DNA of 64,000 bases from Candidatus Peribacteria bacterium (GTDB lineage: Bacteria; Patescibacteriota; Gracilibacteria; Peribacterales; Peribacteraceae): positions 31,236 through 95,235 of the forward strand of contig JABICL010000034.1 of NCBI GenBank assembly GCA_018652265.1, written 5' to 3'. Within the stretch, counting starts at the first letter, position 1, and the number at the start of each line of letters is the position of its first letter. Positions 18,901-63,068 of the stretch are shown one piece after another. The position numbers and the translations under genes are program-made. The notes beneath the pieces are model-generated. The model was given only the letters and a program-made list of their open reading frames with translations, was not told where the DNA came from and did not search any database.

Positions 18901-19188
18901 TACATCATCATCTATGCTTAAATTTTTCCATTCAGACCATTTACTTCCTTCTAGAGTTTGAATCTTTAAGTTTTTAATCCCACTTGGTAGTTCCGCAGAT
19001 ATTCCTGTCGCAGGTTTTTCTAGAGATATCTCTTTTGTTCGTTTTGCTTTTAGTGCGATAGAACTACTGTGCACTTCTGCATGAACTTCTTGTGCCCATA
19101 GCAAAGATATAACTGCTGCAAGTACCAAAACTATTGGCTTTGCAGTAATGCGGGATCTGTGAGAAATTTTAAAACGCCTAAGTAACAT
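15910..19188 (-). CDS. Secreted N-acetylmuramoyl-L-alanine amidase (Amidase_2/PGRP) fused via Ig-like domains to a SpoIID/LytB domain
   Basis: Signal peptide; [17 protein letters not shown]...TSCPG; C-terminal [36 protein letters not shown]. Confidence 0.85.
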
Positions 19189-19268
19189 ATATCTCTGATT
19201 ATAGCGGGTTTTTGGTAGTTTTGTAGGTTATGTATTTTATGTATAAATTGTCCAATGCTCCCTAAAGC

Positions 19269-19349
19269 TAATGAATAATTAAAAATGAATAATGAATAAT
19301 TATGGACTATTTCCTTTATTGTACATTTTTCATTGTACATTTTTCATTT
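19269..19349 (-). repeat. 81-bp cassette: 5 heptamers + 11-bp core + 5 inverted heptamers
   Basis: On - strand: aaatgaa aaatgta caatgaa aaatgta caataaa GGAAATAGTCC ataatta ttcatta ttcattt ttaatta ttcatta. Confidence 0.85.
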
Positions 19350-20545
19350 GTCGTCTTAATAACATTTATATATTGATTTACCATCCTCTCAACAGAAAAT
19401 CTTTCTCTAGCACTTTTTTCTCCATTTCTAGACAGTTTCTCCAAAACTTCTTCTTTCTGAATTTCTGTAATTGCAGCTTTAATTTTATTACTACTTCCTG
19501 CAGGAACAATAATTGAATCCTCCGAGGAGATATGCCTAGAGATTCCACATGCATCTGTACATATAGTAGGAATTCCTCGCATCATTGCTTCGGCAATCAC
19601 TAGTCCAAAAGGATCATTTTCTCTGCTTGGCAAAACCAGACAATCTATCCGATTATAAAATTCTTCTATATTGGGAATTGATTCCACAAGCTCAATTTTT
19701 TGCTGCCCACTTGTTTGTTTTTGTATATTGCAGCGAGAACAGGCTTTTATAAGCTTATTTCTCTCAGGTCCATTTCCAACTATCTCTAGCTCCACATTCG
19801 AAAGATCTTTTATGGCTTCTATAAGCAGATCTACTCCTTTGTCGTAAGTTAAGCGAGAAATACAGCCTATGCGGAAATTTCTAGCTTTCCTAGGGTGAAC
19901 ATTGTTGCTCTCCTCGACCGAGTCCGCCGAGGCGGACGAGTGGAGAGGCGCCTCTCGATTCAGCTCCTTGCTAGGAGCTTCACTCGAGGAAAGCCTTGTT
20001 TCCACTCCATTAGGAATAGAAATCACATCCTCCTCTCTCCACCCCATATCCAAATAAATATCTCTGCTCAGGTCAGATACCGTAACTGTAGTTGCTAGCC
20101 TGCTTAGTTTGCGAAGACGCGGAAGCCATGGATTCCACTTAAGCCATCTTCCTACTTTATCATGTTCGACCCAGATTACTTTTATGTTGTTTTGAATGCA
20201 CCACTCTGTGAGTAGAAGTTTTTCGCTTAGGCTCAACATGAAAACCGTGCTCAGTGTTCCGCGTTCCGCGTTCAGTGCTTCTATAAGCTTTTTCTTCATA
20301 CCTTTCTTCCGCCATAAGAAACTAATTGCATTCCACTTAGTAACTGGCGGGGGATCAATATTCAATTCTTTCATGCGGTCCGCGGTCCGCGGTCCGCGGA
20401 CCGCTCGTAATAGTGTTTTACAATCTCCCAAAAACTCAACTTCATAACCTCTCTCTCCCAGTCCTTTCATTAAACTCAGCGTCTGCACCTCCGCCCCGCC
20501 GAAACGAGATTCAAGTGGAAATCTGGTAAATAGGACTTTCTTCAC
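19316..20545 (-). CDS. Glycosyltransferase family 4 with three in-frame repeat insertions
   Basis: GGAEVQ, IPNGV, SRLTYDKG, DPFGLVIAEAM. Confidence 0.9.
   Translation of the reverse strand: MKKVLFTRFPLESRFGGAEVQTLSLMKGLGERGYEVEFLGDCKTLLRAVRGPRTADRMKELNIDPPPVTKWNAISFLWRKKGMKKKLIEALNAERGTLSTVFMLSLSEKLLLTEWCIQNNIKVIWVEHDKVGRWLKWNPWLPRLRKLSRLATTVTVSDLSRDIYLDMGWREEDVISIPNGVETRLSSSEAPSKELNREAPLHSSASADSVEESNNVHPRKARNFRIGCISRLTYDKGVDLLIEAIKDLSNVELEIVGNGPERNKLIKACSRCNIQKQTSGQQKIELVESIPNIEEFYNRIDCLVLPSRENDPFGLVIAEAMMRGIPTICTDACGISRHISSEDSIIVPAGSSNKIKAAITEIQKEEVLEKLSRNGEKSARERFSVERMVNQYINVIKTTNEKCTMKNVQ
19884..19994 (-). repeat. In-frame palindromic element (family A), 111 bp
   Basis: GCTTTCCT...AGGAAAGC termini; encodes LSSSEAPSKELNREAPLHSSASADSVEESNNVHPRKA. 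Confidence 0.9.
20247..20280. repeat. In-frame degenerate heptamer run
   Basis: gtgctca gtgttcc gcgttcc gcgttca gtgctt; peptide LNAERGTLS. Confidence 0.65.
20375..20404. repeat. In-frame heptamer run (GCGGTCC)n
   Basis: Encodes AVRGPRTADR; same unit as 38841-38870. Confidence 0.85.
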
Positions 20546-20619
20546 CGGTATAAATTAACATGTTATTAGATTGGGCGCGTGCTTCAAAAAGGGAATATGA
20601 AGAGCGCTTTGAGCAAGAA

Positions 20620-20722
20620 GTAGCATGCGCGTCCCGCGCATGAGGTCAAATGGGCGTCCTCGCCCACGTTTACCGCGGGCACGATGCCCGCATGACCTCA
20701 TCGCCGAGGACGGCGATGCTAC
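20620..20722. repeat. GTAG-type REP doublet with four hairpins
   Basis: GTAGCATGCGCG-TCC-CGCGCATG...CATCGCCG-AGGA-CGGCGATGCTAC; inner ATGAGGTCA/TGACCTCAT stem. Confidence 0.75.
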
Positions 20723-20728
20723 GCCGTC

Positions 20729-23386
20729 CTAGCCTCCGTGACACTTCTTATATTTCTTCCCACTACCGCACGGACAAGGATCATTTCTTCCTACTTTGGT
20801 TTTAGGCATACCAGGTGGTAATCCCTGAGAAGAAGGCCTCTTTCCGTTTCGCATAGCAGAACCTGCACCGGTTTCGTAAAGTTCATTTTCTATATCATCT
20901 ATATTCGTTTCCAGATCTTTTTGCTCTTCTTTTACTCTTTCCATCATCGCTCGTGGAGCGAATTGTTTGAAGTCTATTTGTAGCAGTGTGTGAACTATAG
21001 ATGATTCGATAGATACAATTAGCTGCGCAAATAATCTAAATCCTTTGTCTTTATATTCGATCAAAGGATCTTTTTGTGCATAACCAGAGAAGGCGACTTG
21101 CTCTCTAAGGTGAGACATAGTGTCTATATGATTCATCCAGTGGGTATCTATAGATCTAAGCGTAACTACTCTTTCTGCCTGTTCTACAAGTTCACTGTCA
21201 TACTCTTTGCATTTTTTCTCGTATGCATCTTTTGTGGCTTCACACAGTGATGTTTTTAATTCTTCTGTTGTTTGAAAACCTTTTACGCTGAATTCTCCAA
21301 GTGAGTGATGTAGTGCTCCAAGTCTCTTACTTATATCTTCTATCTCCCATTTTTCTGGATCTTTATCGGAAGCATGAGCAACAACTATTGCTCCTATTTC
21401 TTTTTCTATATATTCAACTATTTCACTATGTAAACTTTCTTCATTACTTTCATCGCTTTCTTTATAGGAGCTACTCATCTTATTCATAAGATCCTGTCTC
21501 CTCTTGTACATAATCTTTCTATGCTTATTCATTACATCGTCGTACTGCACAACGTGTTTTCTTACATCGAAGTTTCTCCCCTCCACTTTCTTTTGAGCAT
21601 TTCCTATAGCTCTCGATACCATTGAATTTTCAAGTGGAACATCATCAGGAACATTCATTCTTTCCATCATTGATTTCAATCTATCTCCACCAAATAGTCT
21701 CATTAGATCGTCTTCCATAGATACAAAAAATTGGCTTTCTCCAGCGTCTCCTTGCCTTCCTGCTCTTCCGCGAAGCTGATTATCTATACGACGAGCTTCG
21801 TGCCTTTCTGTTCCAAGTATTACAAGTCCTCCTAGTTCCAATACCTCTTCTGCGAGCTTTATATCAGTTCCACGTCCTGCCATATTTGTGGCTATGGTTA
21901 CTGCGCCTTTTTGTCCTGCCTGAGACACTATTTCTGCTTCACGTTCGTGGTGTTTTGCGTTTAAAACCTCATGTGGAATATTTTCTGCAGCAAGCAAAGC
22001 TCCCAATGCTTCAGATTTTTCTATAGAAGTTGTTCCTGCAAGAACTGGCTGACCTTTTTCGTGTTTTTCTTTTATGATTTTTGCAGCAGCTTTAAATTTC
22101 GCCTCTACAGTTCGATAAATTGCATCAGATTTATCATCACGTATTGTTGGTTTATTTGTTGGAATTACATATGTTCGTGTTCCATATATCTGTTCAAATT
22201 CTTCTTCTTCTGTTTTAGCAGTTCCTGTCATTCCAGATAACTTTTCGTACATACGGAAATAGTTCTGGAAAGTTATAGTTGCCAGAGTTTTACTCTCCCT
22301 TTGTACTTCTACCCTCTCCTTTGCCTCTATGGCCTGATGTAAGCCATGTCCATATCTACGTCCTGGCATCAGGCGACCGGTAAATTCATCTACAATTATT
22401 ATTTCTTGCTCCCTTACTACATAGTCCACATCTGATTTATATATTGCATGTGCTCTGAGAGCTTGCTCTATATGATGCACCTCTTCGAATCCTTTCTCTG
22501 TATATATATTTTCTATTCCAAGTAGTTCTTCCATATGCCTTATCCCTTCCTCTGTAAGAACTGCGAGCCTTTGTTTTTCATCTATTGTGTAATCTTTATT
22601 TGGTTTTAAATTACTTACGAGTCCAGAATACAAATTGTATTTATCGGTACTTTCTTCTGCTGGCTGGCTAATAATTAGGGGAGTACGGGCTTCGTCTATA
22701 AGGATTGAATCTACTTCATCTACTATGCAGAAATTTAAGCCCCTTTGAACCTGTAGATCTACAGATGGTGCCATGTTGTCTCTGAGATAATCGAATCCAA
22801 ATTCATTGTTAGTTCCATATGTCACATCAGAGTTATATGCAGCACGACGTTCTTCTGCAGATTTTTCATGTACAACTACATCAGTTGTTAGGCCTAGCAT
22901 TTCATATAATGGCCTCATCCACTCTTCATCACGCTTTGCAAGATAATCGTTCACGGTGACCACGTGTACACCTTTGCCTGTAAGTGCATTTAGGTACACA
23001 GGCATGGTACAAACCAAGGTTTTACCTTCACCAGTCTTCATTTCAGCTATTGAGCCTTTGTGCAAAATAATTCCACCAAGAATTTGAACATCAAATGGAA
23101 CCATATTCCATATTACTTGGGATTTTCCAACTTGGATTTCTGTACCACATAAAAGCTGACAAGCCCTAATTACTACTGCAAAAGCTTCTGGCATTACGCT
23201 ATCTAGAGATTCTCCCTCCTTTATTCTTGTGCAGAATTCTTCTGTTTTCTTCTTTATATCTTCTTCGGAGAAGTTCTGAGCCTCTTCGAATCTATTTTTT
23301 ACTTTAGCAACCAAAGGCGTAAGCTTCTTCAATTCTTTCTGAGCCGGGTCACCAAGTAGGCGATTTAGAGCATCTACAAACGACAT
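20729..23386 (-). CDS. secA: Preprotein translocase subunit SecA
   Basis: EMKTGEGKT, DEVDSILIDEARTPLIIS, TNMAGRGTDI, GRNDPCPCGSGKKYKKCHG. Confidence 0.98.
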   Translation of the reverse strand: MSFVDALNRLLGDPAQKELKKLTPLVAKVKNRFEEAQNFSEEDIKKKTEEFCTRIKEGESLDSVMPEAFAVVIRACQLLCGTEIQVGKSQVIWNMVPFDVQILGGIILHKGSIAEMKTGEGKTLVCTMPVYLNALTGKGVHVVTVNDYLAKRDEEWMRPLYEMLGLTTDVVVHEKSAEERRAAYNSDVTYGTNNEFGFDYLRDNMAPSVDLQVQRGLNFCIVDEVDSILIDEARTPLIISQPAEESTDKYNLYSGLVSNLKPNKDYTIDEKQRLAVLTEEGIRHMEELLGIENIYTEKGFEEVHHIEQALRAHAIYKSDVDYVVREQEIIIVDEFTGRLMPGRRYGHGLHQAIEAKERVEVQRESKTLATITFQNYFRMYEKLSGMTGTAKTEEEEFEQIYGTRTYVIPTNKPTIRDDKSDAIYRTVEAKFKAAAKIIKEKHEKGQPVLAGTTSIEKSEALGALLAAENIPHEVLNAKHHEREAEIVSQAGQKGAVTIATNMAGRGTDIKLAEEVLELGGLVILGTERHEARRIDNQLRGRAGRQGDAGESQFFVSMEDDLMRLFGGDRLKSMMERMNVPDDVPLENSMVSRAIGNAQKKVEGRNFDVRKHVVQYDDVMNKHRKIMYKRRQDLMNKMSSSYKESDESNEESLHSEIVEYIEKEIGAIVVAHASDKDPEKWEIEDISKRLGALHHSLGEFSVKGFQTTEELKTSLCEATKDAYEKKCKEYDSELVEQAERVVTLRSIDTHWMNHIDTMSHLREQVAFSGYAQKDPLIEYKDKGFRLFAQLIVSIESSIVHTLLQIDFKQFAPRAMMERVKEEQKDLETNIDDIENELYETGAGSAMRNGKRPSSQGLPPGMPKTKVGRNDPCPCGSGKKYKKCHGG

Positions 23387-23446
23387 CTTTATAAGGATAG
23401 CATTTTATTTATGTTTACATTGTAAATTCCTGTTAGAATCATGCAT

Positions 23447-23986
23447 ATGCCTCTCTATACAAGATTGGGCGACAGTGGAGAAACCATGCTTTATGGAGGA
23501 GAGAAGATAAGTAAATCTGAACCAAGAATTCATGCTTATGGGACTTTAGATGAGCTGGATGCTTTGCTTGGAGTAATAGCTTCTGATAGCGAGTGCAAAG
23601 AGGACCTGAAAACTAGGGTGCAGAAATTGCAGAAGAAGTTATTTATTGCAAAGTCAGATTTTGCAACACCCATGTCTTTTGGAGGTGATTGCTTGAGAAT
23701 TTCTCAAGAAGATGTAGAAGAAATGGAAAAAGAGATAGATGAATTAGAATCTAATGTTCCAAAACTTACAAAGTTTATAATTCCAGGAGGATCAAAAGTT
23801 GCATCTTATCTTCATCAAGCTCGTACAGTTTGTAGAAGAGCAGAGAGATGGGCAGTTAAATTTTCCGAAGAGAGTGAGATAAATTATGCGGCACTTAGGT
23901 ACTTAAATCGTTTTGGAGATATGCTTTTTGCTCTTGGTAGAGCGGTAAACATGGAAGAAGGTGTGGAAGAAGTAGAAGCAGGGTAA
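23447..23986 (+). CDS. pduO: PduO-type ATP:cob(I)alamin adenosyltransferase
   Basis: LYTRLGDSGET, AYGTLDELD, FIIPGG, ARTVCRRAER, YLNR. Confidence 0.88.
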   Translation: MPLYTRLGDSGETMLYGGEKISKSEPRIHAYGTLDELDALLGVIASDSECKEDLKTRVQKLQKKLFIAKSDFATPMSFGGDCLRISQEDVEEMEKEIDELESNVPKLTKFIIPGGSKVASYLHQARTVCRRAERWAVKFSEESEINYAALRYLNRFGDMLFALGRAVNMEEGVEEVEAG

Positions 23987-23995
23987 GATACCGAT

Positions 23996-24229
23996 ATGAC
24001 AAAAAGAGAACTCACAGGCGATGAAGCTAGACAACTCATAGACGATATTTTATCTAGAACGAATGATCCTTTTATAATGCATTTAAGTTGGAAGCGATCT
24101 GGAGAGAAGGACAAGATAGAACAACACTTAAGTTTTCATGGAACTTGGAATTCACAGGAGATCCTTGCGACGGGGAAGGGGAGAAATCAGCAGATACAAG
24201 AGATTGTTATGCGGAGTTTGGGAAAATAG
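23996..24229 (+). CDS. Hypothetical protein
   Basis: 77-aa ORF 9 nt after pduO. Confidence 0.5.
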   Translation: MTKRELTGDEARQLIDDILSRTNDPFIMHLSWKRSGEKDKIEQHLSFHGTWNSQEILATGKGRNQQIQEIVMRSLGK

Positions 24230-24238
24230 TCGAAGCAT

Positions 24239-26212
24239 CTAAAGTTCCCTCTTAAGCATCTCCACCTCATCCCTCAAATCTGCAGCCTTTTCAAACTCAT
24301 AGTTTTCTGAGGCGATTTCCATCTGATTTTGAAGTTCTTTTATAAGCCTCTTCTTTTCATCTTTTGGAATCTTCTTGTTATCACGTTTTGGCTTTCTGAG
24401 TTCCAGCTTATTTTTCTCTTCTGCAATGTCATGAACTGCTTTTTCAATCGATTGAGGAGATATTCCATGATCTTCATTAAATTTATGTTGAATAGATCTT
24501 CTTCTTTCAGTTTCTTCCATTGCTGCTTTCATAGCTTTTGTAATTTTGTCTGCATACAAAACTACATGCCCGCGAACATTTCTAGCACATCTTCCTATTG
24601 TCTGTACAAGCGCATCGCGAGATCTCAAGAATCCTTCTTTGTCTGCGCCAAGTATCGCAATAAAACTTACCTCTGGCAGATCCAATCCTTCTCGAAGTAG
24701 ATTTACTCCTACTATTATATCTATTTCTCCAATTCTTAATTCTCTTATGGTTTCTACCCTGTCCAATGTTTTAATATCTGAATGCAGATATTTAACTTTA
24801 TAATCTTTATCGAGTAAGTACTGAGAAATTTCTTCTGCACTTTTTTTGGTAAGTGTAGTTACAAGTATTCTTTCTTCTCTATCTATAGTTTGATCTATTT
24901 CCGAGACAATATTATCTATTTGTCCTTTCGATGGATGAATGGTTACTACTGGATCTAGTAATCCAGTGGGACGTATAACTTGTTCTACAATTCTATCTTT
25001 TTTGGTGTTCTTATATTCATATTTGCCAGGAGTGGCTGATATATAGACTGCTTGTCCTATTTTGTTTTCGAATTCTTCAAATCTAAGGGGTCTATTGTCT
25101 TTGCTAGAAGGAAGTCTAAATCCATATTCTATAAGAGTATTTTTCCTACTTAAGTTTCCTTCATACATACCTCCCACTTGAGGAATTGTCATATGAGATT
25201 CATCTACCAATAATAGAAAATCATCAGGGAAATAATCCAGAAGAGTTTCTGGTGGAGATCCAGGTTTTTTCTCTCCTAGATATCTCGCATAGTTTTCTAT
25301 GCCTGTGCAGTATCCAGTTTCAAGTAACATTTCCAGATCATATTCAGTCCTCTGTCTTAATCTTTCTGCTTTTGCGATATCTCCTCTTTCTATAAGTTCT
25401 TTTTCTCTTTCATTTAAGTCTTTTTTTATAGATCCAGCTGCTTTTTCTATTTTCTCCTTTGTAGTTACTGTGTGAGTGGCAGGGAAAATAGTTGCCTCAC
25501 TCATCTCGCACAGTACTTCGCCAGTAAAACTATCTACCTCTGATATAGATTCAATTTCATCAAAGGCCATTTCTATCCTTATTACAGTGTCTCCACTAGG
25601 AGGAAATATTTCTACCGTATCTCCTAGAACATGCACCATGCCCTGCTTAAATTCCACACCTGATCTTTTGTATTGTATGTCTGTAAGCTCTCTTAAAAAT
25701 GTATCACGTACTTTTTGCTCACCTTGTTTTATAGTTATTGCCATTCCCTCGTAATCCGTAACACTACCAAGTCCATATATACAAGATACTGATGCAACTA
25801 TAATCACATCTCTCCTAGAGAGAAGATTATGTGTAGCTGCGTGTCTATATTTTGCAATTTCATCATTGATAGATGCATCTTTTTCTATATACGTATCTGT
25901 AGATGGCATATATGCCTCTGGCTGATAATAATCGTAATAAGAAACAAAATAAGAAATTGCATTCTCTGGAAAAAAAGATTGAAATTCAGAACATAATTGA
26001 GCCGCTAAAGTTTTATTATGAGCCATTACCAATGTTGGCCTTTGCTGCTGCTCAATTATATTTGCCATTGTGAAAGTTTTACCTGTTCCTGTAGCTCCCA
26101 AAAGAGTTTGATGTCTTTCGCCGGATTTTAATCCTGCAGAGAGTTTTTTGATTGCCTCTGGCTGATCACCTTTTGGATCGAATTTGGATACGAGTTTAAA
26201 TTGGTTAGACAT
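24239..26212 (-). CDS. uvrB: Excinuclease ABC subunit B
   Basis: GATGTGKT, HNKTLAAQL, YYDYYQPEAY, DESH, C-terminal UVR domain. Confidence 0.98.
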   Translation of the reverse strand: MSNQFKLVSKFDPKGDQPEAIKKLSAGLKSGERHQTLLGATGTGKTFTMANIIEQQQRPTLVMAHNKTLAAQLCSEFQSFFPENAISYFVSYYDYYQPEAYMPSTDTYIEKDASINDEIAKYRHAATHNLLSRRDVIIVASVSCIYGLGSVTDYEGMAITIKQGEQKVRDTFLRELTDIQYKRSGVEFKQGMVHVLGDTVEIFPPSGDTVIRIEMAFDEIESISEVDSFTGEVLCEMSEATIFPATHTVTTKEKIEKAAGSIKKDLNEREKELIERGDIAKAERLRQRTEYDLEMLLETGYCTGIENYARYLGEKKPGSPPETLLDYFPDDFLLLVDESHMTIPQVGGMYEGNLSRKNTLIEYGFRLPSSKDNRPLRFEEFENKIGQAVYISATPGKYEYKNTKKDRIVEQVIRPTGLLDPVVTIHPSKGQIDNIVSEIDQTIDREERILVTTLTKKSAEEISQYLLDKDYKVKYLHSDIKTLDRVETIRELRIGEIDIIVGVNLLREGLDLPEVSFIAILGADKEGFLRSRDALVQTIGRCARNVRGHVVLYADKITKAMKAAMEETERRRSIQHKFNEDHGISPQSIEKAVHDIAEEKNKLELRKPKRDNKKIPKDEKKRLIKELQNQMEIASENYEFEKAADLRDEVEMLKREL

Positions 26213-26255
26213 GAAGAGGAATTGTATGTGTAAATTAAAACACAGGAAAGAAAAA

Positions 26256-26400
26256 TAAGTACTTTAGGTACTTTATGTACATTAGGTAATTTAGGTACAT
26301 ATTTAATACGAGAAATTAAATCCTACCTAAGATACCTAAGATACCTAAGATACCTAAGATACCTAAGATACCTAAGATACCTAAGATACCTAAGATACCT
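26256..26400. repeat. Inverted nonamer-arm cassette with perfect (TACCTAAGA)x8 array
   Basis: Five degenerate TAGGTACTT units, palindromic core ATTTAAT-N7-ATTAAAT, then 8 perfect TACCTAAGA units. Confidence 0.9.
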
Positions 26401-26415
26401 TATACTACCCCTCGT

Positions 26416-29301
26416 ATGATTAAAAAAATTCAAAACTATCTGTCACATGTATTTTTTCTGGCTCTGGTCGTATGGGGCATTTATGCAACGTTAGTGTTTT
26501 TGGGTATAGATGCACACATAGTTGTCCTTCTAGAAGATGAAGCATGGAAATCTATAGCTAAGGATATTCCACAAAAACAGGGGGAATTTCCTCCGGCTGC
26601 GTTTTTGAGAGGGTTAAATGCTCTAGTGCCTATGGTTCAGCATTTTATATCTAGAGCTAGACCATTTCTTGCTTACGGAGTGGTTAGTGCTTTAATTTAT
26701 TTGTTATATGTGTGTTATACAGTTCTTGTAAAGGGAAGGCTTTTTATAGATAAAAAGGTAAATGCTCTACATTTAATTATTTTATTCTTTGGAAGTACAT
26801 GGCTTGTATTTACTACTCTTTTTTATGTTGATGTTCCAAATTTACTTCCCAGTCTTATACTTGAGCCTTCAAGAGAGTCTTTAAATGATTCAGTTTCCGA
26901 AGAGGCATTTGTTGTATTAAAAGAAAATTTCAAGAGATTGGAAGAGTCTGGATGTATTATTCAAGATAAAGAGGGCAGAAAAACTGGAGCTGGAGCAAAT
27001 GCATACTGGTATCAGGGCATTTGTGTTCAGAAAGCATTCTTTACCAGAGTTATGTCTCAGGCTTTTATGCTTATGTTTTTGATATTGAATTTCCTTGTTA
27101 TAGGTAAATTCTTGCTTAAGCTTTTTAAGTTCAAGACATCAAAATTATTAGAATTTGCTATGAGTTTAGGTTTGGGTGCAGCAGGAGTTACTATGATAAT
27201 TTGGATATTGGCACTTATTAAGATTTTAAATTCTGCTACTGCATGGGTAGTTCTTATTGCTATTCCAATAATTGGATATCCGTATGTTTCTTATTGGATA
27301 AAATCAATTTTGCATTCCAACTGGAAATACAAAACATCATTCTTATCTGCAAAAAATATTATTATCTGGCTTCTTATTACATATCTAGCATTTAACTTCT
27401 TAACAGTTGTAAGGCCATTTCCTATTGGATGGGATGATCTTGGTAGATATATAAATGGGCCAAGACAAGTAAGTGTATTTGGCCATATTATTCCTGGAAT
27501 GCTTGCTGCACAGTGGGAATATCTAACGTCTTTGGGGTTTGTATTGTTTGGTTATTATTCAGCTTTTGGGGCAACACTTGCTCAGCAAATTAATTGGATG
27601 GCAGGACTTTTTGCAACATTTGCTGTGTTTATTTGTGCAAGAAGTGTTTTGGGTGATGGCAAAGGAATATTTGCTGCCCTCTTCTATTACACATTACCAA
27701 TGGCTGGTCATTTCTCGTTTGCAGATATGAAAACTGAGAATGCACTACTCTTTTATGGGGCGCTTGGTATTACCGCAGTTGTTATTTGGATAAAAAATAG
27801 AGAAAAAGAAGAGCAAGATGGAAATGGAATGAAGTGGTTGTTTGTTGCGGGAATTTTATTTGCTGCAGGAGTTGCTACCAAGCCTACGATTGTTCTTATG
27901 TTTCTTATGGCAGGAACCATGATTACATTCGATGTATTGGGAGTTTCTAGTGGTATAGGATCAATATTTCTTGGCACTCTTATACTTACAAAATCTAGGG
28001 CAATCAGCTTATCCAAGATAGCGGAAAAATTGGGGATACTAGACGTTTCATTGTTTAGTACTTTTGTGACTATCTCTCTCCTTGTGATTGGTGTTGCACT
28101 ATTTGTAATGCCACTTGTTTATTCAAGGAAAAAATCAAATACAAAAGCAAAACTTGCGGAACACAAGTTCTATTGGAAGAGCGTTATGGTTATTGTAGTT
28201 GGTTTTATGATTTTCTCGGGGCCATGGATGGTTAGAAATATGGGGGCTAATAAAATGATAAATGTGTCTGCATTACTTGGTGCGCCAAATACGATTACTC
28301 CTATGATTGTATATAGCGAAGAAATGCTTCCTGATAATGCTCCTGAAGGATCGAGATTTTTGCCTCCTGAATTGGCAGTAGATCCTGATCATGAAAGATG
28401 TATAGGTACTTCTGAGCAAGAAGAGTTAGATAGATATTGGGGATATGGTGCTGGATTTAGTCATTTCCTTAAATTGCCATGGAGAGTGATTATGAATGTA
28501 GATTCTCAGGGGTACTACCTCACAACTTCTCCATTATTACTTCTTGTTCCATTATTACTTCTGGCGCCAATCTTTTGGAGGAAGAGAATTCTTAGATTGA
28601 TATTCTGGGGGACACTTGCATATGTTTTCCAATGGATTCTCGCAGCCAGTGGTATCCCTTGGTATGGAATAGGAATGTTCCTTGGCCTTGCCATATGTGT
28701 TGAAGCTGTTTTATTTGGTTCAAAAGATAAGGCTTCCAGGATAGTAGGAGGGACTTTGTGTGTTGTTGCAATACTTATGGTCCTATCTCTTAGGCTTTGG
28801 CAATTTTCCATGCAAATGAATTTGCATGAGTATTCATGGGGAAAAGCTTCCTTTGAAGTGCTTAGAGAGATGACTATTCCTGATTACGATAATATTACAG
28901 AAAATGTTGTTGAGCTTTCCAAGAATAAGGAAACACCTTATCTATATAGGATGGGAACTTTTATAAGTTATTTCATTCCACGCAATAGGGAAATTATTAC
29001 GCTAAATGATAATCAGCTTGTCTTTTTTAATTGTATAAACCAAGAGGGAGATCATCTTCTTACTTTAAAGAGACTTAAGGCATTAGGATTTCATAGTATA
29101 GTTTTTGATACGAATACTGCGACCATAGAAAAAGATCAAAACGGAACTCTTCATCAGAAGGTAAATAATTTTATGGATTTTGCAAATGATGAAAGTACGG
29201 GAATTATATCTGTGGTGAATAATCCAGGAGGGGGGATTGCTTATATGATACTTCCGGAGAGCGTTGAGATTGATGAGGATGCTGTAGATGTAGAGGAGTG
29301 A
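26416..29301 (+). CDS. Large polytopic membrane protein, GT-C/PMT-like glycosyltransferase
   Basis: Many TM helices; PIGWDDLGRY acidic loop and KTE...K motifs resembling ArnT/PMT_2. Confidence 0.6.
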   Translation: MIKKIQNYLSHVFFLALVVWGIYATLVFLGIDAHIVVLLEDEAWKSIAKDIPQKQGEFPPAAFLRGLNALVPMVQHFISRARPFLAYGVVSALIYLLYVCYTVLVKGRLFIDKKVNALHLIILFFGSTWLVFTTLFYVDVPNLLPSLILEPSRESLNDSVSEEAFVVLKENFKRLEESGCIIQDKEGRKTGAGANAYWYQGICVQKAFFTRVMSQAFMLMFLILNFLVIGKFLLKLFKFKTSKLLEFAMSLGLGAAGVTMIIWILALIKILNSATAWVVLIAIPIIGYPYVSYWIKSILHSNWKYKTSFLSAKNIIIWLLITYLAFNFLTVVRPFPIGWDDLGRYINGPRQVSVFGHIIPGMLAAQWEYLTSLGFVLFGYYSAFGATLAQQINWMAGLFATFAVFICARSVLGDGKGIFAALFYYTLPMAGHFSFADMKTENALLFYGALGITAVVIWIKNREKEEQDGNGMKWLFVAGILFAAGVATKPTIVLMFLMAGTMITFDVLGVSSGIGSIFLGTLILTKSRAISLSKIAEKLGILDVSLFSTFVTISLLVIGVALFVMPLVYSRKKSNTKAKLAEHKFYWKSVMVIVVGFMIFSGPWMVRNMGANKMINVSALLGAPNTITPMIVYSEEMLPDNAPEGSRFLPPELAVDPDHERCIGTSEQEELDRYWGYGAGFSHFLKLPWRVIMNVDSQGYYLTTSPLLLLVPLLLLAPIFWRKRILRLIFWGTLAYVFQWILAASGIPWYGIGMFLGLAICVEAVLFGSKDKASRIVGGTLCVVAILMVLSLRLWQFSMQMNLHEYSWGKASFEVLREMTIPDYDNITENVVELSKNKETPYLYRMGTFISYFIPRNREIITLNDNQLVFFNCINQEGDHLLTLKRLKALGFHSIVFDTNTATIEKDQNGTLHQKVNNFMDFANDESTGIISVVNNPGGGIAYMILPESVEIDEDAVDVEE

Positions 29302-29390
29302 TTAGTAGGTAGTGGGTAGTGATTAGTAGCAAAACAATATGTGGTACGTTGTGCAGCGTGCTAGCCACTAACTACTAACCACTAACCACT
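29297..29390 (+). repeat. Inverted heptamer-arm cassette (AGTGRKT / CACTRAC type)
   Basis: agtgatt agtaggt agtgggt agtgatt agtagca + core + ctagcca ctaacta ctaacca ctaacca. Confidence 0.8.
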
Positions 29391-29466
29391 TGTTCGTTCT
29401 TAAAATTCTTCAAAATATACAATTTATTCCATACATATCACCAATAATAGTTCTATACTTTATACT

Positions 29467-30135
29467 GTGAAGACCGTAGCAATAATTCCGGCTTTCAATG
29501 AAGTAACGCAGATATCTGATGTTATAAATGGAATGAAAAAGCATGTGGATTCTGTAATAGTTATAGATGATGGTTCCACAGATGGTACAGGTAATATTTC
29601 TAGAGATTGTGGAGCAATAGTAGTGACTCACAGAATGACTCGAGGTGCAGGAGCCGCAACTATGACTGGAATTATTGTAGCAAGGCTAATGCATGCACAG
29701 GCTGCTATAACAATAGATGCAGATGGTCAGCATGATCCGAATGATTCTCCAAAATTGTTGGCCCCTATTCTAAGTGAAGATGCAGACATAGTTATAGGCA
29801 CAAGATTTAAAGGAAGAAACAATGTCCCGTTTTTGCCAAAGCTATTTAATAAAATTGGAAACATACTTACTTTTATGACTACTGGTAAATATGTCTCAGA
29901 TAGCCAGTCGGGATTCAAAGCCTTTGGACCGGTTTCTTTATATACGATTCATTTGCATATGGATGGGTTTGAATTCTGCACAGAAATTGTAAGAGAAATT
30001 GCACAATATGGATGGAAGGCAAAAGAGGTTCCTGTAGGAGTTACATACTCTGAATACACTAGAGCAAAAGGTCAGTCTTTTTCCCGTGGAGTGATTACAG
30101 CATGTAAGATATTACTTAGATTCTTCCTCAGATAA
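29467..30135 (+). CDS. GT2, polyprenol-phosphate sugar synthase-like
   Basis: IPAFNE, DDGSTD, DADGQH, DSQSGFK. Confidence 0.88.
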   Translation: MKTVAIIPAFNEVTQISDVINGMKKHVDSVIVIDDGSTDGTGNISRDCGAIVVTHRMTRGAGAATMTGIIVARLMHAQAAITIDADGQHDPNDSPKLLAPILSEDADIVIGTRFKGRNNVPFLPKLFNKIGNILTFMTTGKYVSDSQSGFKAFGPVSLYTIHLHMDGFEFCTEIVREIAQYGWKAKEVPVGVTYSEYTRAKGQSFSRGVITACKILLRFFLR

Positions 30136-30137
30136 TT

Positions 30138-30515
30138 ATGGATTTTCAAATAACCCCATACATCGTAGTAGTGCCGCTCATAGCCTTTTTCTTTATAGTT
30201 TATGCATGGAACCACGTTATGCGTGGGACCAAGACTATATGGGAAGCAATACTTTGGTCGTTTTTCTGGGGGTGCATCGCAACTATAGTTCTTTTCCCAG
30301 AATGGATAGGCTTTCTAACATCATGGACTGGGATAAAAGATCAAGAGAATGCAATATTTGCTATAGCAATTGGAATAATCCTTTTTATCGTTTTCCAAAT
30401 AATTATAAGAATGGAAAATATGCAGAAGCAAATTACAGATTTGGTGAGGCATGATGCTATTGAGGATTCGGGACTAACAGAGTCAGATGCTGTAACAAAT
30501 AGCACAAACAAGTGA
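30138..30515 (+). CDS. DUF2304-like small membrane protein
   Basis: Three TM helices plus C-terminal QITDLVRHDAI; usual partner of DPM-like GT2. Confidence 0.7.
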   Translation: MDFQITPYIVVVPLIAFFFIVYAWNHVMRGTKTIWEAILWSFFWGCIATIVLFPEWIGFLTSWTGIKDQENAIFAIAIGIILFIVFQIIIRMENMQKQITDLVRHDAIEDSGLTESDAVTNSTNK

Positions 30516-30603
30516 GTAGTGAGTAGTGGGTAGTGATTAGTAGCAAAGCAATAGGTACGCGATATGTAACCCACTGACCACTGACCACTAACCACTAACC
30601 ACT
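30511..30603 (+). repeat. Inverted heptamer-arm cassette (second copy)
   Basis: agtgagt agtgagt agtgggt agtgatt agtagca + core + cactgac cactgac cactaac cactaac. Confidence 0.8.
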
Positions 30604-30608
30604 CGTAC

Positions 30609-31808
30609 ATGAAAACCATTCTACTCATCTCCCCCTATTGGAAAGAGCCGCATCGTTGGATGGTAAGTTCTGTAAAACTTGCAGAGCTTTGGCAAAGAAT
30701 GGGATATAAAGTAGTTGTTGTATGTATGGGGGCGAAAACAGAGAAAGAAGTAGTCTCGGAAACTCTCACTATTTATAGGGTGTGGGATTTCTTTTTGCCA
30801 GACCCTTTAAACTATGGAATATCTCCAGGATTTTTCTTTAAAGTTTTAAGGGTTTTAAAAAACGAAAAGCCAGACATCGTAATTGTAAATAAGATTCTTT
30901 TCTGGACTTCTTTGATTGTTCCTTGGCTTAGAATTCTTGGAAAAAAGCCAATCGTTACTACGGATGCACTTGTAGGAGTTACCTGGCAGCCTAGAGGAAT
31001 AATTCCAAAAGTCATTATGTCTATTGGAGGATGGACGGCTGGATGGAAAGTAATGCTTTTTGCCAAAAAATTAGTATTTTTTCATCCGCAGCCGGATAAG
31101 ATTTTGAAAATGATGGGGGTTTATGGAAAATCAATTGTGATTCCTACGGGGATAGATAGTCGAGCTTTCCTTAACAAGCTCTCCTCGAGTGAGTCCGCCA
31201 GCGGGCGGACGAATCGAGAGGCGCCTCTCCACTCGTCCGCTAAAGCGGACTCGGTCGAGGAGAGTTACAATATTCATGCGAGGAAAGCTCAAACCGTGAC
31301 TTATGTTGGACGATTAGAATCTGTAAAAGGTGTAGATGATTTTCTCGCAGCGACAGTGCCTCTAAAAAAAGATTATCCAGATCTAAATATTCAAGTTGTT
31401 GGATATTGTAAGCCAGGGAATACGATCGTAAGGCAATATGAAGGTAGCGTGAAATTCACAGGATTGCGTGATGATATTCCAGAGATTCTAAGTAGCTCAG
31501 ATATATTCGTCTTACCAAGTTATAGTGAAGGCCTTAGTAATGCTCTCATGGAAGCTATGTCTTCTAGGTGTGCATGTATTGCTACCGGTGTAGGCGGTAA
31601 TAAATATTTAATAGAAGACTCAGTATCTGGATTACTATTTAAGCCAGGGGATATCGAGGCTCTTAGATCTCATGTAAGAAGCCTGATAGACAATCCTTCA
31701 AGGATAGAGGGATTAGGAAATGCAGCCAGGGCCCGCATAGAGGATATGTTTGACTGGAGCGTAATCGAGAGTAAATATGCTGAACTTTTTAACGAGCGGG
31801 CCAATTAA
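30609..31808 (+). CDS. Glycosyltransferase family 4 with in-frame palindromic insertion
   Basis: IPTGID, YVGRLESVKG, SEGLSNALMEAM. Confidence 0.9.
   Translation: MKTILLISPYWKEPHRWMVSSVKLAELWQRMGYKVVVVCMGAKTEKEVVSETLTIYRVWDFFLPDPLNYGISPGFFFKVLRVLKNEKPDIVIVNKILFWTSLIVPWLRILGKKPIVTTDALVGVTWQPRGIIPKVIMSIGGWTAGWKVMLFAKKLVFFHPQPDKILKMMGVYGKSIVIPTGIDSRAFLNKLSSSESASGRTNREAPLHSSAKADSVEESYNIHARKAQTVTYVGRLESVKGVDDFLAATVPLKKDYPDLNIQVVGYCKPGNTIVRQYEGSVKFTGLRDDIPEILSSSDIFVLPSYSEGLSNALMEAMSSRCACIATGVGGNKYLIEDSVSGLLFKPGDIEALRSHVRSLIDNPSRIEGLGNAARARIEDMFDWSVIESKYAELFNERAN
31162..31290 (+). repeat. In-frame palindromic element (family A), 129 bp
   Basis: GAGCTTTCCT...AGGAAAGCTC termini; encodes AFLNKLSSSESASGRTNREAPLHSSAKADSVEESYNIHARKA. 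Confidence 0.9.
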
Positions 31809-31882
31809 CAATGTACAATGAAAAATGAATAATAAAGGAAATCTTCCATAATTATTCATTGTTAATTATTAATTATTCATTA
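31802..31882 (+). repeat. 81-bp 5x7/core/5x7 cassette
   Basis: caattaa caatgta caatgaa aaatgaa taataaa GGAAATCTTCC ataatta ttcattg ttaatta ttaatta ttcatta. Confidence 0.85.
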
Positions 31883-31893
31883 ATACTTTCTCT

Positions 31894-32835
31894 ATGATGA
31901 CATCTATAGTTACTGGCGGAGCAGGATTCATAGGTTCACATCTATGTGAAGTACTTCTTGAAAGGGGAGAGAGGGTTATCTGCATCGATAATTTTTTCAC
32001 TGGAAATAAGAAGAACGTAGAGCATCTAATGGATAATGAAAAATTTACTTTAATTGATCATGATATTGTTGATCCATTATCAACGGTGGAATGCCCACTT
32101 GCTGCTGACATAATTTACAATCTTGCATGTCCAGCTTCCCCTGTTCACTATCAGCATGATCCAGTAAAAACTGTTCAAACAAATGTGGTAGGAACTACAA
32201 ATATGTTGGAGCTAGCAAAAGCTAGAGGAGCAATTTTTCTACAAGCCTCGACTTCCGAAGTATATGGAGATCCAGAAGTACATCCACAGCCAGAAAGTTA
32301 TGTGGGGCATGTAAATCCACTAGGGCCTCGGGCTTGTTATGACGAAGGAAAGAGATGCGCAGAGACTTTATGTTCTGACTATCATCGTGAATATGGATTG
32401 ACGACTAAGATTGCACGTATTTTTAATACGTATGGTCCACGTATGGCAGAAAATGATGGAAGAGTAGTTTCTAATTTTATTTTGCAAGCACTTCGAAATG
32501 AACCAATAACAATATATGGGGATGGATCACAAACTCGTAGCTTTCAATTTGTAAATGATCTAGTTCGAGGACTTCTTCTACTTGCTGATCACAAAGATTT
32601 TCATGGTCCTGTAAATATAGGTACTCAGTTTGAGATGACTGTGAAAGCGCTTGCTGAAATGATTATTAAAATGACTGGATCGAAAAGCGAAATAATATAT
32701 GGCCCGTTGCCTGAAAATGATCCTAAACAAAGAAGGCCAGATTCTTCACTTGCAAAAGAGAAATTGGGCTGGGAAGAAGAGATTTCAGTTGAAGATGGAT
32801 TGAAGCAGGCTATTGAATATTTTAAAAGCTTATAG
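31894..32835 (+). CDS. UDP-glucuronate decarboxylase (UDP-xylose synthase)
   Basis: GGAGFIGSH, LACPASPVHYQ, STSEVYGDP, YDEGKR, RIFNTYGPRM. Confidence 0.92.
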   Translation: MMTSIVTGGAGFIGSHLCEVLLERGERVICIDNFFTGNKKNVEHLMDNEKFTLIDHDIVDPLSTVECPLAADIIYNLACPASPVHYQHDPVKTVQTNVVGTTNMLELAKARGAIFLQASTSEVYGDPEVHPQPESYVGHVNPLGPRACYDEGKRCAETLCSDYHREYGLTTKIARIFNTYGPRMAENDGRVVSNFILQALRNEPITIYGDGSQTRSFQFVNDLVRGLLLLADHKDFHGPVNIGTQFEMTVKALAEMIIKMTGSKSEIIYGPLPENDPKQRRPDSSLAKEKLGWEEEISVEDGLKQAIEYFKSL

Positions 32836-32842
32836 CGACGAG

Positions 32843-32923
32843 AAATGAACAATGAATAATTAACAATGAATAATAAAGGAAATCTTCCATAATTGTTAAT
32901 TGTACATTGTTCATTGTTAATTA
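32843..32923 (+). repeat. 81-bp 5x7/core/5x7 cassette
   Basis: aaatgaa caatgaa taattaa caatgaa taataaa GGAAATCTTCC ataattg ttaattg tacattg ttcattg ttaatta. Confidence 0.85.
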
Positions 32924-32976
32924 GCATGTTCCACTAATGAACACTCAATGAGTTGTTTTGCTGTAATATATCAATC

Positions 32977-34017
32977 ATGAAGAAGGTAGTGATCTTGTCG
33001 GCATTTCTCTCTCCTTACAGAAGTGGAGCAGAAGCATGCGTAGAAGAGGTGGCTATAAAACTGTCTAAATATTTCGATGTAACTATAGTTACTAGTAAGA
33101 AGTTTTCTGGAGAAGATAAAAAACTTAGAGGTATTGTTTCTATAAAGAGAGTTGGCTTGGGATTATCTATAGATAAATGGCTATTTCCCATATTTGCTCC
33201 ATTTGCAGTAAGAAAATTACGACCAGATATCACGCATGCGATACTTGAGACTTTTGCGGGACTTACTCTTCACTTTTGTAAGTATGCCGATAAAGAAACC
33301 AAGAGAATTTTAACTCTGCAAACTACGAATAGAAGTTTTCTAAAAGGCATGATAATCAGGTCTGCAGATAAAGTTACTGCAATAAGTAAAGCATTGGTGA
33401 AAATTGCAGGGGAGTTAGGTAGAAATGATGTTGTTTTGATTCCGAATGGTGTGAATATATCTCAGTTATGTAATTCTGTTTCGAAGACTGATGGAAGTAT
33501 CCTATTCGTTGGAAGATTAGAAAAAATGAAAGGAATAGATATCTTGATGCAAGCCTTCAAAAAAGTTTCAGAGAAAAATAGTGAAGCAAAATTGCGGATA
33601 GTGGGGGATGGATCACAGAGAAAGACTCTGAAGAGTCTGGCTTATGAGTTGGGAATAAAAGACAAAGTAACTTTTACGGGGAAATTATCTCCAAATGAGG
33701 TTTACGAAGAATATGGTCACGCACAAATCTTTTGTGGACTCTCTAGATCTGAGGCTTTTGGAAATGTATTTATAGAAGCTCAAGCTGCAGGATGTGCTGT
33801 TGTAGGAACTAGCATCGGAGGAATCCCAGATACTGTAGAACAAGGTGTTACAGGACTTCTGGTAAAACCAGATGACGTCGATGGTGCAGTAGAAGCTCTG
33901 GAAAGGCTACTTAGCGATGCAGATCTAAGGAATAAATTAAGTGAAAATGGGAGAAAAAATGCAGAGAAATATGACTGGGCAAATATTGCACAGCAATATG
34001 CGGAGTTATATAGTTAG
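32977..34017 (+). CDS. Glycosyltransferase family 4 (insertion-free linker)
   Basis: SGAE, IPNGVN, FVGRLEKMKG, EAFGNVFIEA. Confidence 0.9.
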   Translation: MKKVVILSAFLSPYRSGAEACVEEVAIKLSKYFDVTIVTSKKFSGEDKKLRGIVSIKRVGLGLSIDKWLFPIFAPFAVRKLRPDITHAILETFAGLTLHFCKYADKETKRILTLQTTNRSFLKGMIIRSADKVTAISKALVKIAGELGRNDVVLIPNGVNISQLCNSVSKTDGSILFVGRLEKMKGIDILMQAFKKVSEKNSEAKLRIVGDGSQRKTLKSLAYELGIKDKVTFTGKLSPNEVYEEYGHAQIFCGLSRSEAFGNVFIEAQAAGCAVVGTSIGGIPDTVEQGVTGLLVKPDDVDGAVEALERLLSDADLRNKLSENGRKNAEKYDWANIAQQYAELYS

Positions 34018-34239: not shown

Positions 34240-34965
34240 TTAAATATTTTTCACAATCTCTTCAGCCCTCTCAAGAGCCTCAAAAGTCCCTGCGTCTATC
34301 CAGTCCTTTTCGATAACAGTAGCAGTTAATTCGTTGCGATCTAGATATGCCTTGCTTACATCTGTAATTTCTAATTCTCCACGATCAGATGGATTAAGAG
34401 TTTTTATAATCTCAAAACAATCTCCTGCAAACAGATAACATCCAGTCACTGCTAAATTAGACTTCGGGGTTTCAGGTTTCTCTTCAAGCGATATCACTTC
34501 ACTGATCGCGGATCGCGGATCGCGGATCGCGGTTTCTGCTACTCCAAATCTCTCTGGATCATCTACTTCTTTTAGAAATAGATGTCCTCCATTTCCTTCG
34601 AAAGCTTTTATATCTTCAGATAAATTGTTTGCGAAAATATTATCGCCAAGCATGGCACACACAGGCTCTTCGTCTGCAAAAGATTCTGCAAGTGCCAGAG
34701 CATGAGCTATTCCTTTTGGCTCATCCTGAATTCTGTATGTGAAATCACAACCAAACTTTGCTCCAGATCCCAAAAATTGCATAAAGTCTCCTGCGAATGT
34801 GGGGCCTGTAATTAGCATAATATCTGTGATTCCTGCATCTAGTAGAACTTTGAGTGGATAGTGAATAAGTGGCTTGCCACCGACCTTTAGTAGACTCTTG
34901 TGAGTAGTGTCTGTAAGAGGCTTGAGCCTAGTTCCCGATCCGCCGCAGATAAGAATTCCTTTCAT
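34240..34965 (-). CDS. rmlA: Glucose-1-phosphate thymidylyltransferase-like sugar nucleotidyltransferase
   Basis: MKGILICGGSGTRLKP, LGDN, EEKP, RGELEITD, WIDAGT; the extension to 35097 in the ORF track is repeat-derived. Confidence 0.85.
   Translation of the reverse strand: MKGILICGGSGTRLKPLTDTTHKSLLKVGGKPLIHYPLKVLLDAGITDIMLITGPTFAGDFMQFLGSGAKFGCDFTYRIQDEPKGIAHALALAESFADEEPVCAMLGDNIFANNLSEDIKAFEGNGGHLFLKEVDDPERFGVAETAIRDPRSAISEVISLEEKPETPKSNLAVTGCYLFAGDCFEIIKTLNPSDRGELEITDVSKAYLDRNELTATVIEKDWIDAGTFEALERAEEIVKNI
34504..34531. repeat. In-frame (GATCGCG)x4
   Basis: Encodes AIRDPRSAI in the hairpin turn between FGVAE and VISLEEKP. Confidence 0.9.
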
Positions 34966-35015
34966 AGTGTCGACATTATAACACTCCGCTCGCGTGCTTA
35001 AGGTGGTATTTCGCT

Positions 35016-35122
35016 TAGGTGGGAGCCAAGTCGCTCTCCTCGAGTGAGTTGTGCTGCCTCTCGACGTCCGCCTGTGGCGGACGCTCGAGGAAAGCACAAC
35101 GAATCGAGAGGTGTCGAAGCAT
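35016..35122 (+). repeat. Intergenic compound A-in-B element (5'-truncated relative of 42210)
   Basis: TAGGTGGGAGCC-AAGTC-GCTCTCCTCGAGTGAGTTGTGCTGCCTCTCGA...GAATCGAGAG-GTGTCGAAGCAT. Confidence 0.85.
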
Positions 35123-62970: not shown

Positions 62971-63068
62971 TTTATTGTTGGGTAAAATTAACATTTTTAA
63001 TATACCAGCAGAATTCGTATGTTTCCGTACAATAGACCTCTTTCTGTAATAGATTTCACATTCCGCTT

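Follow-up and report, generated by a model that had tools for sequence, protein, structure and literature searches.

A stretch of 64,000 nucleotides from a Candidatus Peribacteria genome (referred to below as the window, and equal to our contig C30 starting at base 31236) carries three units built from heptamers in inverted arms around a short core, and the question raised by this locus is what kind of element these units are. A first-pass annotation, made from the letters alone, had described three cassettes of exactly 81 bp and had considered them as empty, non-autonomous versions of a gene-carrying cassette or as periodic protein-binding arrays. According to our analysis, the best explanation is that they are probably gene-less copies, shortened by internal deletion, of a small insertion cassette that encodes a protein of the IVP family (PF05635, 23S_rRNA_IVP). 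Below, we describe the build of the units, the gene-bearing copy to which they can be related, the association between heptamer arrays and IVP genes, and the observations that speak for and against this reading and its rivals.

Architecture of the three cassettes

The heptamer family of these units was named B-type. On contig C30 the cassettes occupied positions 50504-50584, 63037-63117 and 64078-64158; in the window they were located as follows:

19269-19349, polarity +: B-type cassette 1 (arm 19269-19303, core 19304-19314, arm 19315-19349)
31802-31882, polarity -: B-type cassette 2 (arm 31802-31836, core 31837-31847, arm 31848-31882)
32843-32923, polarity -: B-type cassette 3 (arm 32843-32877, core 32878-32888, arm 32889-32923)

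Each of them was 81 bp long and consisted of five NAATKWA heptamers, an 11-bp core and five inverted heptamers. Thus, the parse reproduced the length and the build that had been described before, and it also returned the small unit alphabet listed at that time (aaatgaa, caatgaa, taatgaa, taattaa, caattaa, caatgta and aaatgta). The two arms of each cassette had 5+5 units from one alphabet, and no open reading frame (ORF) was present inside, the cores being only 11 bp long. The core of cassette 1 was GGAAATAGTCC (minus strand, 19304-19314), and that of cassettes 2 (31837-31847) and 3 (32878-32888) was GGAAATCTTCC. Against an expectation of 0.69, the core pattern was matched four times in the window, with one match in each cassette and a fourth, unrelated one at 25228.

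The units next to the core were special forms, namely TAATTAT or CAATTAT on one side and TAATAAA or CAATAAA on the other. In cassette 1 the five units of the left arm ended with TAATTAT, and the ATG formed there continued into the core. In cassette 2 the ATG side was the right one, which gave this copy the polarity -.

A gene-bearing copy and a series of deletions

The genome to which the window belongs comprised 1.07 Mb in 48 contigs, with 38% G+C and a completeness rated 100%. PF05635 had nine matches in it, and one of them (C46:11968-12270, minus strand) was located between B-type arms:

C46:11888-12324, gene on the minus strand: IVP-bearing B-type cassette, arms C46:11888-11922 and 12297-12324

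The ORF of this cassette encoded 120 amino acids, and its product matched TIGR02436 (four helix bundle protein) with an E-value of 2.7e-27. The ATG at 12291 was part of the innermost unit (TAATT-ATG-GAG), while the ORF ended 9 nt before TCTTCC and the opposite arm. The earlier remark that inverted heptamer arms flank IVP or bAvd-like genes was thus confirmed in this very genome, since C46:11888-12324 encloses a TIGR02436/PF05635 gene. The full element is composed of five NAATKWA heptamers, an ATG with the four-helix-bundle gene, TCC, and five inverted heptamers.

Another B-type copy, of 100 bp (C46:14013-14112), was found 1.7 kb from the IVP-bearing cassette. Its first 43 nt, with ATGGAGAAGA and the opening 10 nt of the ORF among them, were identical to those of that cassette, and 48 of 55 nt matched at the 3' end. 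This 100-bp copy is the IVP-bearing cassette with the ORF deleted.

A genome-wide search for the core and the heptamer arrays, which had been proposed together with the first description, revealed 12 two-armed cassettes and 13 single arms of the B alphabet. Ten of the two-armed cassettes were 76-100 bp long, one had 437 bp, and one was a doubtful 2.6-kb pair. All 12 had one ATG side and one TAA/AAA side, with ATG-GA(A/G) at the inner edge of one arm and TCC at that of the opposite arm, and therefore each B-type cassette has a polarity. Moreover, 10 of the 12 had 5+5 units, so that neither random unit counts nor the loss of a common core, both of which had been named beforehand as contrary outcomes, were observed.

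Since a 100-bp deletion intermediate exists and the ATG and TCC edges are shared, the 81-bp units are the shortest members of a deletion series. The window cassettes, having no ORF, are thus derivatives of the IVP cassette and not full members of this class. The idea of an empty, non-autonomous cassette therefore gained support from the parent copy on C46, from the 100-bp deletion copy and from edges that were the same in 12 of 12 cases.

Two features of the parent locus are of separate interest. A partial extra end (three units and GGAAGACTATTTTTTTAT) was present at C46:11849-11887, in tandem beside the full arm of the IVP-bearing cassette. In addition, the genome has a single RNase III gene (rnc, C46:11166-11846), which was directly upstream of its sole IVP-bearing B-type cassette (11849-12324). 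A link between the two was dropped because no B-like IVP gene occurred within 10 kb of rnc among the places listed in other genomes of the class, and we treated the adjacency as a coincidence.

Heptamer arrays and IVP genes in the genome

Heptamer arrays were by no means limited to the B alphabet. Period-7 arrays of at least four units numbered 185 in the genome and 6 in block shuffles, while the control periods yielded 5 against 2 (period 8) and 0 (periods 10 and 11). These 185 arrays formed four large families (62, 45, 39 and 25 arrays) and 14 others. Each of the four large families matched the arms of one IVP gene of the same genome, and many of their members were arranged as inverted gene-less pairs. 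After overlaps had been merged, 166 arrays were left, among which 61 had four units and 91 had five (152 of 166 together), and 9 had at least six.

All nine IVP genes were flanked by heptamer arrays, one of them upstream only and two being cut at contig ends, and eight alphabets were represented. Apart from the B-type, the heptamers of the IVP genes were AGTGRTT, GCGATCY, AAATTGA, GGCTTTA, AAAGGAT, TTAGGTA and GGAAATC (the last one upstream only). Each IVP gene of this genome has arms of its own heptamer alphabet. Two near-identical IVP genes, at C20:1-252 and C14:1-252, had TTAGGTA-type upstream arrays and were cut at the contig ends; the TTAGGTA-type cassette is therefore a repeat that breaks the assembly.

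IVP loci and arrays in other genomes

Loci from other genomes were collected with a two-sequence alignment because the profile of eight paralogues was too divergent, and the resulting 80 IVP loci sample one IVP subfamily only. They spanned Omnitrophota, Bacteroidota, Nitrospirota, Acidobacteriota, Planctomycetota, Patescibacteria and others, with the top-scoring IVP matches in a metagenome-assembled genome (MAG) of Candidatus Peribacteria. Period-7 arrays were found upstream at 26 of these loci, downstream at 29 and on both sides at 17, while periods 5, 6, 8 and 9 never exceeded 6 loci on a single side or 2 loci on both sides. At 54 of 78 loci the two flanks shared an ungapped inverted stem, generally 26-35 nt in length, compared with 1 of 78 in the control. 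The 5' arm had more G than C in 46 of the 54 stem-bearing loci, although these loci are homologous and thus not independent.

Within the class to which this organism belongs, PF05635 was present in 71 of 121 genomes and B-type arms in 38 of 121, with a patchy distribution among genera. In other genera, the IVP genes most closely homologous to the B-type one were mostly accompanied by AAT-type heptamers. L102 (G044:C14) and L103 (G010:C6), the two cassettes nearest in homology to the B-type cassette, had in common an insert of about 100 nt between the upstream arm and the ATG, which started near TATCACTCGG.

In a comparison that was small (four genomes against four) and made among related genomes, which lessens its weight for our reading, single-contig genomes were picked with the IVP count as the sole criterion, and their first 400 kb were read:

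IVP-free genomes G051, G113, G089 and G109: 9, 1, 3 and 3 period-7 arrays per 400 kb; period-8 control 8, 1, 2 and 0
IVP-bearing genomes G093, G069, G091 and G000 (the genome studied here): 38, 52, 83 and 75 period-7 arrays per 400 kb; period-8 control 3, 3, 4 and 1

A hand tally with a post hoc threshold gave 12 genomes with at least four B-arm matches and at most two control matches. Eight of them had a B-like IVP gene and 11 had any PF05635 gene, against a background of 45 of 120 and 70 of 120, respectively.

In G047, G105, G124, G128, G091 and others, the internal stops in the IVP and rnc matches were TGA only. This suggests that TGA may be read as sense in part of the class; G000 reads normally under table 11.

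Position and orientation of the cassettes

The genes around the cassettes were taken from the ORF list and from Pfam assignments. Together with two cassettes of a second heptamer family, they were arranged as follows:

19316..20545, minus strand: GT4 glycosyltransferase gene, stop codon within cassette 1
30609..31808, plus strand: GT4 glycosyltransferase gene, stop codon within cassette 2
31894..32835, plus strand: NAD-dependent epimerase/dehydratase gene, between cassettes 2 and 3
29293..29394: gene-less cassette of the second heptamer family (AGTGNNT/ANNCACT arms), in the spacer between ORF 26416..29301 and a GT2 gene
30506..30607: gene-less cassette of the AGTGNNT family, in the spacer between a DUF2304 gene and the GT4 gene

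As had been described earlier, sugar-enzyme genes lay upstream of the three B-type cassettes, Pfam identifying them as GT4, GT4 and NAD-dependent epimerase/dehydratase. It was also correct that two cassettes supply a stop codon, as the stops of the GT4 genes lie within cassettes 1 and 2; in the latter case it is the TAA at 31806-31808 that comes from the cassette. Cassette 3 began 7 nt past the epimerase/dehydratase stop codon. In the sugar operon, each of the four spacers was taken up by a cassette, two of them being of the AGTGNNT type and two of the B-type. The AGTGNNT cassettes at 29293-29394 and 30506-30607 had a core resembling GCAAAGCAAGAACAAACATT, in common with copies elsewhere.

The sense orientation ascribed to the cassettes at first stood in one respect and failed in another. 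The three copies did have one common orientation relative to the upstream gene, but by the polarity of the parent element they were antisense; for instance, cassette 1, with its parent-gene polarity +, lies between two minus-strand genes and is antisense to both of them. Among the 12 B-type cassettes of the genome, 6 were antisense to their neighbours, 2 were sense, 3 were located between convergent genes, and 1 was unclear. The gene-bearing copy was likewise antisense to its co-directional neighbours.

B-type copies were packed tightly between genes, most of them at -14 to +18 nt from the upstream stop and about 10 nt from the next gene. Their neighbours were functionally diverse and included NifU, YebC, enolase, GroEL, V-type ATPase, LytR, RNase III and sugar genes; the cassettes were thus not limited to polysaccharide loci. 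The AT-rich B-type arms mostly contained stops, but not in every frame of every arm. Therefore, most of them survive only between genes, while GC-rich families persist inside genes, in frame.

Proposed mechanism and the evidence against it

The heptamer units were under positional constraint. In 94 outer B-type units, AAT at positions 2-4 was invariant (the parsing pattern preset positions 2 and 4, and position 3 was free), and all 104 non-modal letters were at positions 1, 5, 6 and 7. With positions 2-4 invariant and a count held at 4-5, it is plausible that the arms are periodic protein-binding arrays, and such a function would be compatible with the empty-cassette reading. Solved IVP homologues (2gsc and 2rld) had five chains per entry each, and an rnc gene for RNase III was present in the genome.

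From five IVP or Avd protomers and five heptamer units we infer one unit per protomer. By analogy with Avd, we tentatively propose that an arm of 4-5 x 7 nt could be the binding site of its cognate IVP pentamer, which would contact the unit through the conserved AAT..A positions and leave positions 1, 5 and 6 free or flipped out. By analogy with the 23S rRNA intervening sequence (IVS) of Coxiella, the two arms might also pair in transcripts to form an imperfect, roughly 35-bp stem as a target for RNase III, and such processing would make an insertion between cistrons tolerated and harmless; to this step we give somewhat less than even credence. Finally, it is conceivable, with a similar degree of reserve, that the cassettes spread in trans in dependence on the IVP, the gene-less copies being passengers like a miniature inverted-repeat transposable element (MITE) or a REPIN.

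A number of observations weigh against this reading, and the first group concerns mobility. No target-site duplication was detected in 12 copies (the longest flanking direct repeat was 0-4 nt, offsets allowed), and no target motif was found across the 12 B-type copies. Contigs from four seawater runs showed no insertion polymorphism, empty site or variation in units or length at the cassettes; they bridged cassettes 2 and 3 with 0 differences. Extra depth and joints at repeats in these runs were most readily accounted for by the mapping of other copies at 85% likeness. PF00078 (reverse transcriptase) had 0 matches in the genome, and therefore a diversity-generating retroelement (DGR) was rejected. 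PF01797 (Y1 transposase) also had 0 matches in the genome, transposase families beyond it not being searched, and on this ground the RAYT reading was discarded. Only one tyrosine recombinase (PF00589) was encoded in the genome, at C1:85795-86325, so an integron-like reading was rejected as well. To our knowledge, IVP proteins have no catalytic activity. The comparison for empty sites covered 30 relatives, all of other genera, where the glycosyltransferase (GT) locus was matched in short stretches only, with 65-77% identity; the spacers of the GT loci in relatives carried other heptamer families.

The second group of contrary observations concerns pairing and recognition. The arms of the B-type cassettes were 74% complementary in register (106 mismatches at 406 positions), and this number of mismatches exceeded that obtained with permuted unit order (94.8 +/- 4.2). 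The low complementarity may be partly explained by the shared descent of the copies. The predicted RNA folds of the three cassettes were modest (-12.3 to -24.2 kcal/mol, with z-scores from -1.9 to -6.1), and breaks occurred in the helices every 7 nt. In the 54 stems of the IVP loci, mismatches of the G:U type and of the A:C type were about equal (45 against 44), without any strand-specific evidence that RNA pairing is under selection. Thirteen arms persisted without a partner, and therefore a hairpin is not necessary for persistence. Arrays of the GC-rich and AGTGNNT families, along with a few B-type arms, also occurred in frame inside long ORFs. Throughout the genome, 66 arrays were entirely contained in ORFs from a crude call, and some of these ORFs may be spurious. 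Finally, two IVP proteins (L011 and L013) were 52% identical and had quite different heptamers, so recognition by the IVP would have to evolve fast.

Alternative explanations

The strongest rival holds that the arrays are regulatory sites of the host, either operators of a global regulator or translational control elements between cistrons, with no tie to the IVP. Such a role has been proposed in the main texts on the arrays of Geobacter metallireducens and on the TAACTGA repeats of Beggiatoaceae (PMC2700814, PMC4679880). [quoted passage not shown] It would also fit with promoter-like hexamer pairs, 7 of 24 of which in the interval 19000-33200 were inside the three cassettes. These sigma-70-like pairs were at 19318-19359, 31805-31894 and 32846-32920, and in the whole interval such pairs were fewer than in shuffles (24 against 44). 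Against it, the cores retain the start and the 3' end of an IVP cassette, and the flanking genes are functionally unrelated, with arrays even in frame inside ORFs. Moreover, the B-type arms were patchy among genera (38 of 121 genomes), the arrays tracked the presence of IVP genes, and the positions were not kept in the GT loci of relatives. Thus, we consider host regulation unlikely as the origin of the cassettes, for which we prefer derivation from an IVP cassette.

A still less probable view is that the cassettes are intrinsic terminators or REP-like hairpins (REP, repetitive extragenic palindrome) stabilising the 3' ends of mRNA, the heptamers being incidental. The cassettes are indeed at the 3' ends of genes and capable of forming hairpins, and their frequency was lower in divergent spacers (9 of 99) than in co-directional spacers (35 of 208) and in convergent spacers (10 of 68). 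On the other hand, the 10 terminator-like sites detected in 19000-33200 were all located away from the cassettes, which also disposed of the ordinary terminators envisaged at the outset as a contrary outcome, and the cassettes had no GC-rich stem. No Rfam family matched them, the genome had no RAYT/Y1 transposase, and the stems were weak and broken every 7 nt. In addition, single arms and in-frame arrays cannot act in this way.

Plain microsatellites formed by slippage of 7-nt units, with a coincidental IVP link, are hardly credible even though heptanucleotides are reported as the commonest long simple repeats and 9 of 166 arrays had at least six units, because 152 of 166 arrays were capped at 4-5 units that differ within an arm at fixed positions (in agreement with the earlier remark that a fixed count of variable units is not simple slippage), inverted pairs surrounded a conserved core, the IVP-free relatives sampled had 1-9 arrays per 400 kb, and the contigs of the four seawater runs showed no length variation.

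Other elements of the window

The GT4 gene 19316..20545 contained two in-frame GC-rich heptamer arrays, at 20244-20279 and 20370-20408. Arrays of this GCGGTCC/CGGATCG type were also in frame within ORFs at 34495-34540, 38834-38875 and 51286-51317. They encoded peptides such as RGPRTADR and AIRDPRSAIS, and one of them was within the NTP-transferase domain of ORF 34240..35097.

Both GT4 genes of the window additionally carried a palindromic, GC-rich element some 90 bp in length, which was in frame, stop-free and inside coding genes wherever it was seen:

about 19883-20000: GC-rich palindromic insert in the GT4 gene 19316..20545
31179-31264: GC-rich palindromic insert in the GT4 gene 30609..31808
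C43:60149-60245, C21:17866-17958 and C11:1394-1482: GC-rich palindromic inserts in the rest of the genome

Its translation was roughly LSSSESASGRTNREAPLHSS..DSVEES. A comparison with Rfam gave sub-threshold miRNA-like matches only. The element resembles the Rickettsia palindromic elements.

Significance

PF05635/TIGR02436 is a large family for which we know of no function outside DGRs. Short heptamer arrays, for their part, have been on record for decades with no explanation that we are aware of. The present analysis ties the two together in one genome, as its arrays of 4-5 heptamers are the arms of IVP cassettes. The gene-less copies are more numerous than the IVP genes, and among the eight genomes compared the arrays occur where IVP genes do. 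For annotation, it matters that the cassettes provide stop codons, occupy every spacer of the sugar operon and enter genes in frame.

These data point to IVP cassettes as a possible source of heptamer repeat arrays in many bacterial genomes. A wider and more doubtful hypothesis is that IVP proteins would be ring-shaped readers of a 7-nt repeat code, driving the spread or maintenance of an unrecognised class of mobile cassettes; a pentamer would do so by binding the five heptamers of its own arms, either single-stranded or folded into a hairpin. If this were true, the unexplained heptamer arrays, such as the short tandemly repeated repetitive (STRR) sequences, the GGACCGG and MTYCTGA repeats of Geobacter and TAACTGA, would be arms and footprints of IVP cassettes, and the rRNA IVSs with an ORF would represent a special case of where such cassettes land.

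Comparison with known systems

The tandem heptamer repeats of the cyanobacterial STRR are similar to the arrays described here. In Geobacter metallireducens, arrays of four GGACCGG and five MTYCTGA repeats have been described and left unexplained, with intragenic copies and opposite-strand pairs (PMC2700814); the GC-rich family of the present genome (GCGGTCC/GGACCGC) is close to the first of these units. TAACTGA repeats are found in Beggiatoaceae, Cyanobacteria and Bacteroidetes (PMC4679880), and heptanucleotides have been named the most abundant long simple repeats (Mrazek 2007, cited in PMC4679880). Small fixed unit numbers (four or five; 2-6) and a patchy phylogeny are common to the published arrays (PMC2700814, PMC4679880). 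The main texts of these two papers, supplements apart, contain no mention of S23 or four-helix proteins, and in the open main texts of the literature we found no paper that links heptamer arrays to IVP genes beyond the Coxiella IVS.

REP/REPIN-RAYT systems and MITEs are alike in having one protein-coding master copy with inverted repeats and many scattered gene-less doublets or singlets. In the REP/RAYT architecture, the gene of the RAYT (a Y1 transposase) is flanked by the repeats, and REPs are not known to cause target duplication. Unlike these systems, the gene enclosed here encodes a four-helix bundle for which neither nuclease nor transposase activity is known, PF01797 is absent from the genome, and arrays of 4-5 heptamers take the place of a single palindrome. 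MITEs likewise have a parent copy, but the parent found here encodes an IVP, and the cassettes have no target-site duplication.

The Avd protein of DGRs is a homologue of the IVP (a relationship also noted in PMC10053308) and a pentameric four-helix-bundle protein. It forms a pentameric barrel similar to S23 ribosomal proteins, and its five protomers grip an RNA stem-loop with flipped-out bases in the crevices between protomers (bioRxiv 10.1101/2023.10.23.563531). The difference is in the site, which is an 11-bp stem-loop for Avd and would be an array of 5 x 7 nt here.

The 23S rRNA gene of the present genome (C3:5256-9284) was 4029 bp long against a model of 2925 positions, with about 1.1 kb of insertions, and PF05635 had no match on contig C3 that carries this gene. 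In Coxiella, the 23S rRNA IVS has heptamers (GACAGAT, 3-4 copies) 5' of the S23p ORF and a 28-bp stem within which RNase III cuts, and decay and deletion of the ORF occur (PMC4990558). RNase III cutting belongs to this Coxiella IVS, and for the cassettes described here it is proposed by analogy. The ORF-bearing 23S IVSs of Coxiella burnetii and Leptospira share with our cassettes a PF05635 gene between terminal inverted repeats. They differ from them in location, as the cassettes are between, and sometimes inside, protein-coding genes and not in 23S rRNA, and also in number, as many gene-less copies and several heptamer alphabets are found here in one genome. Thus, the ORF-bearing 23S IVS is the closest known system; the identity of the cassettes is well supported, and they are probably the same kind of element, new in its intergenic setting.

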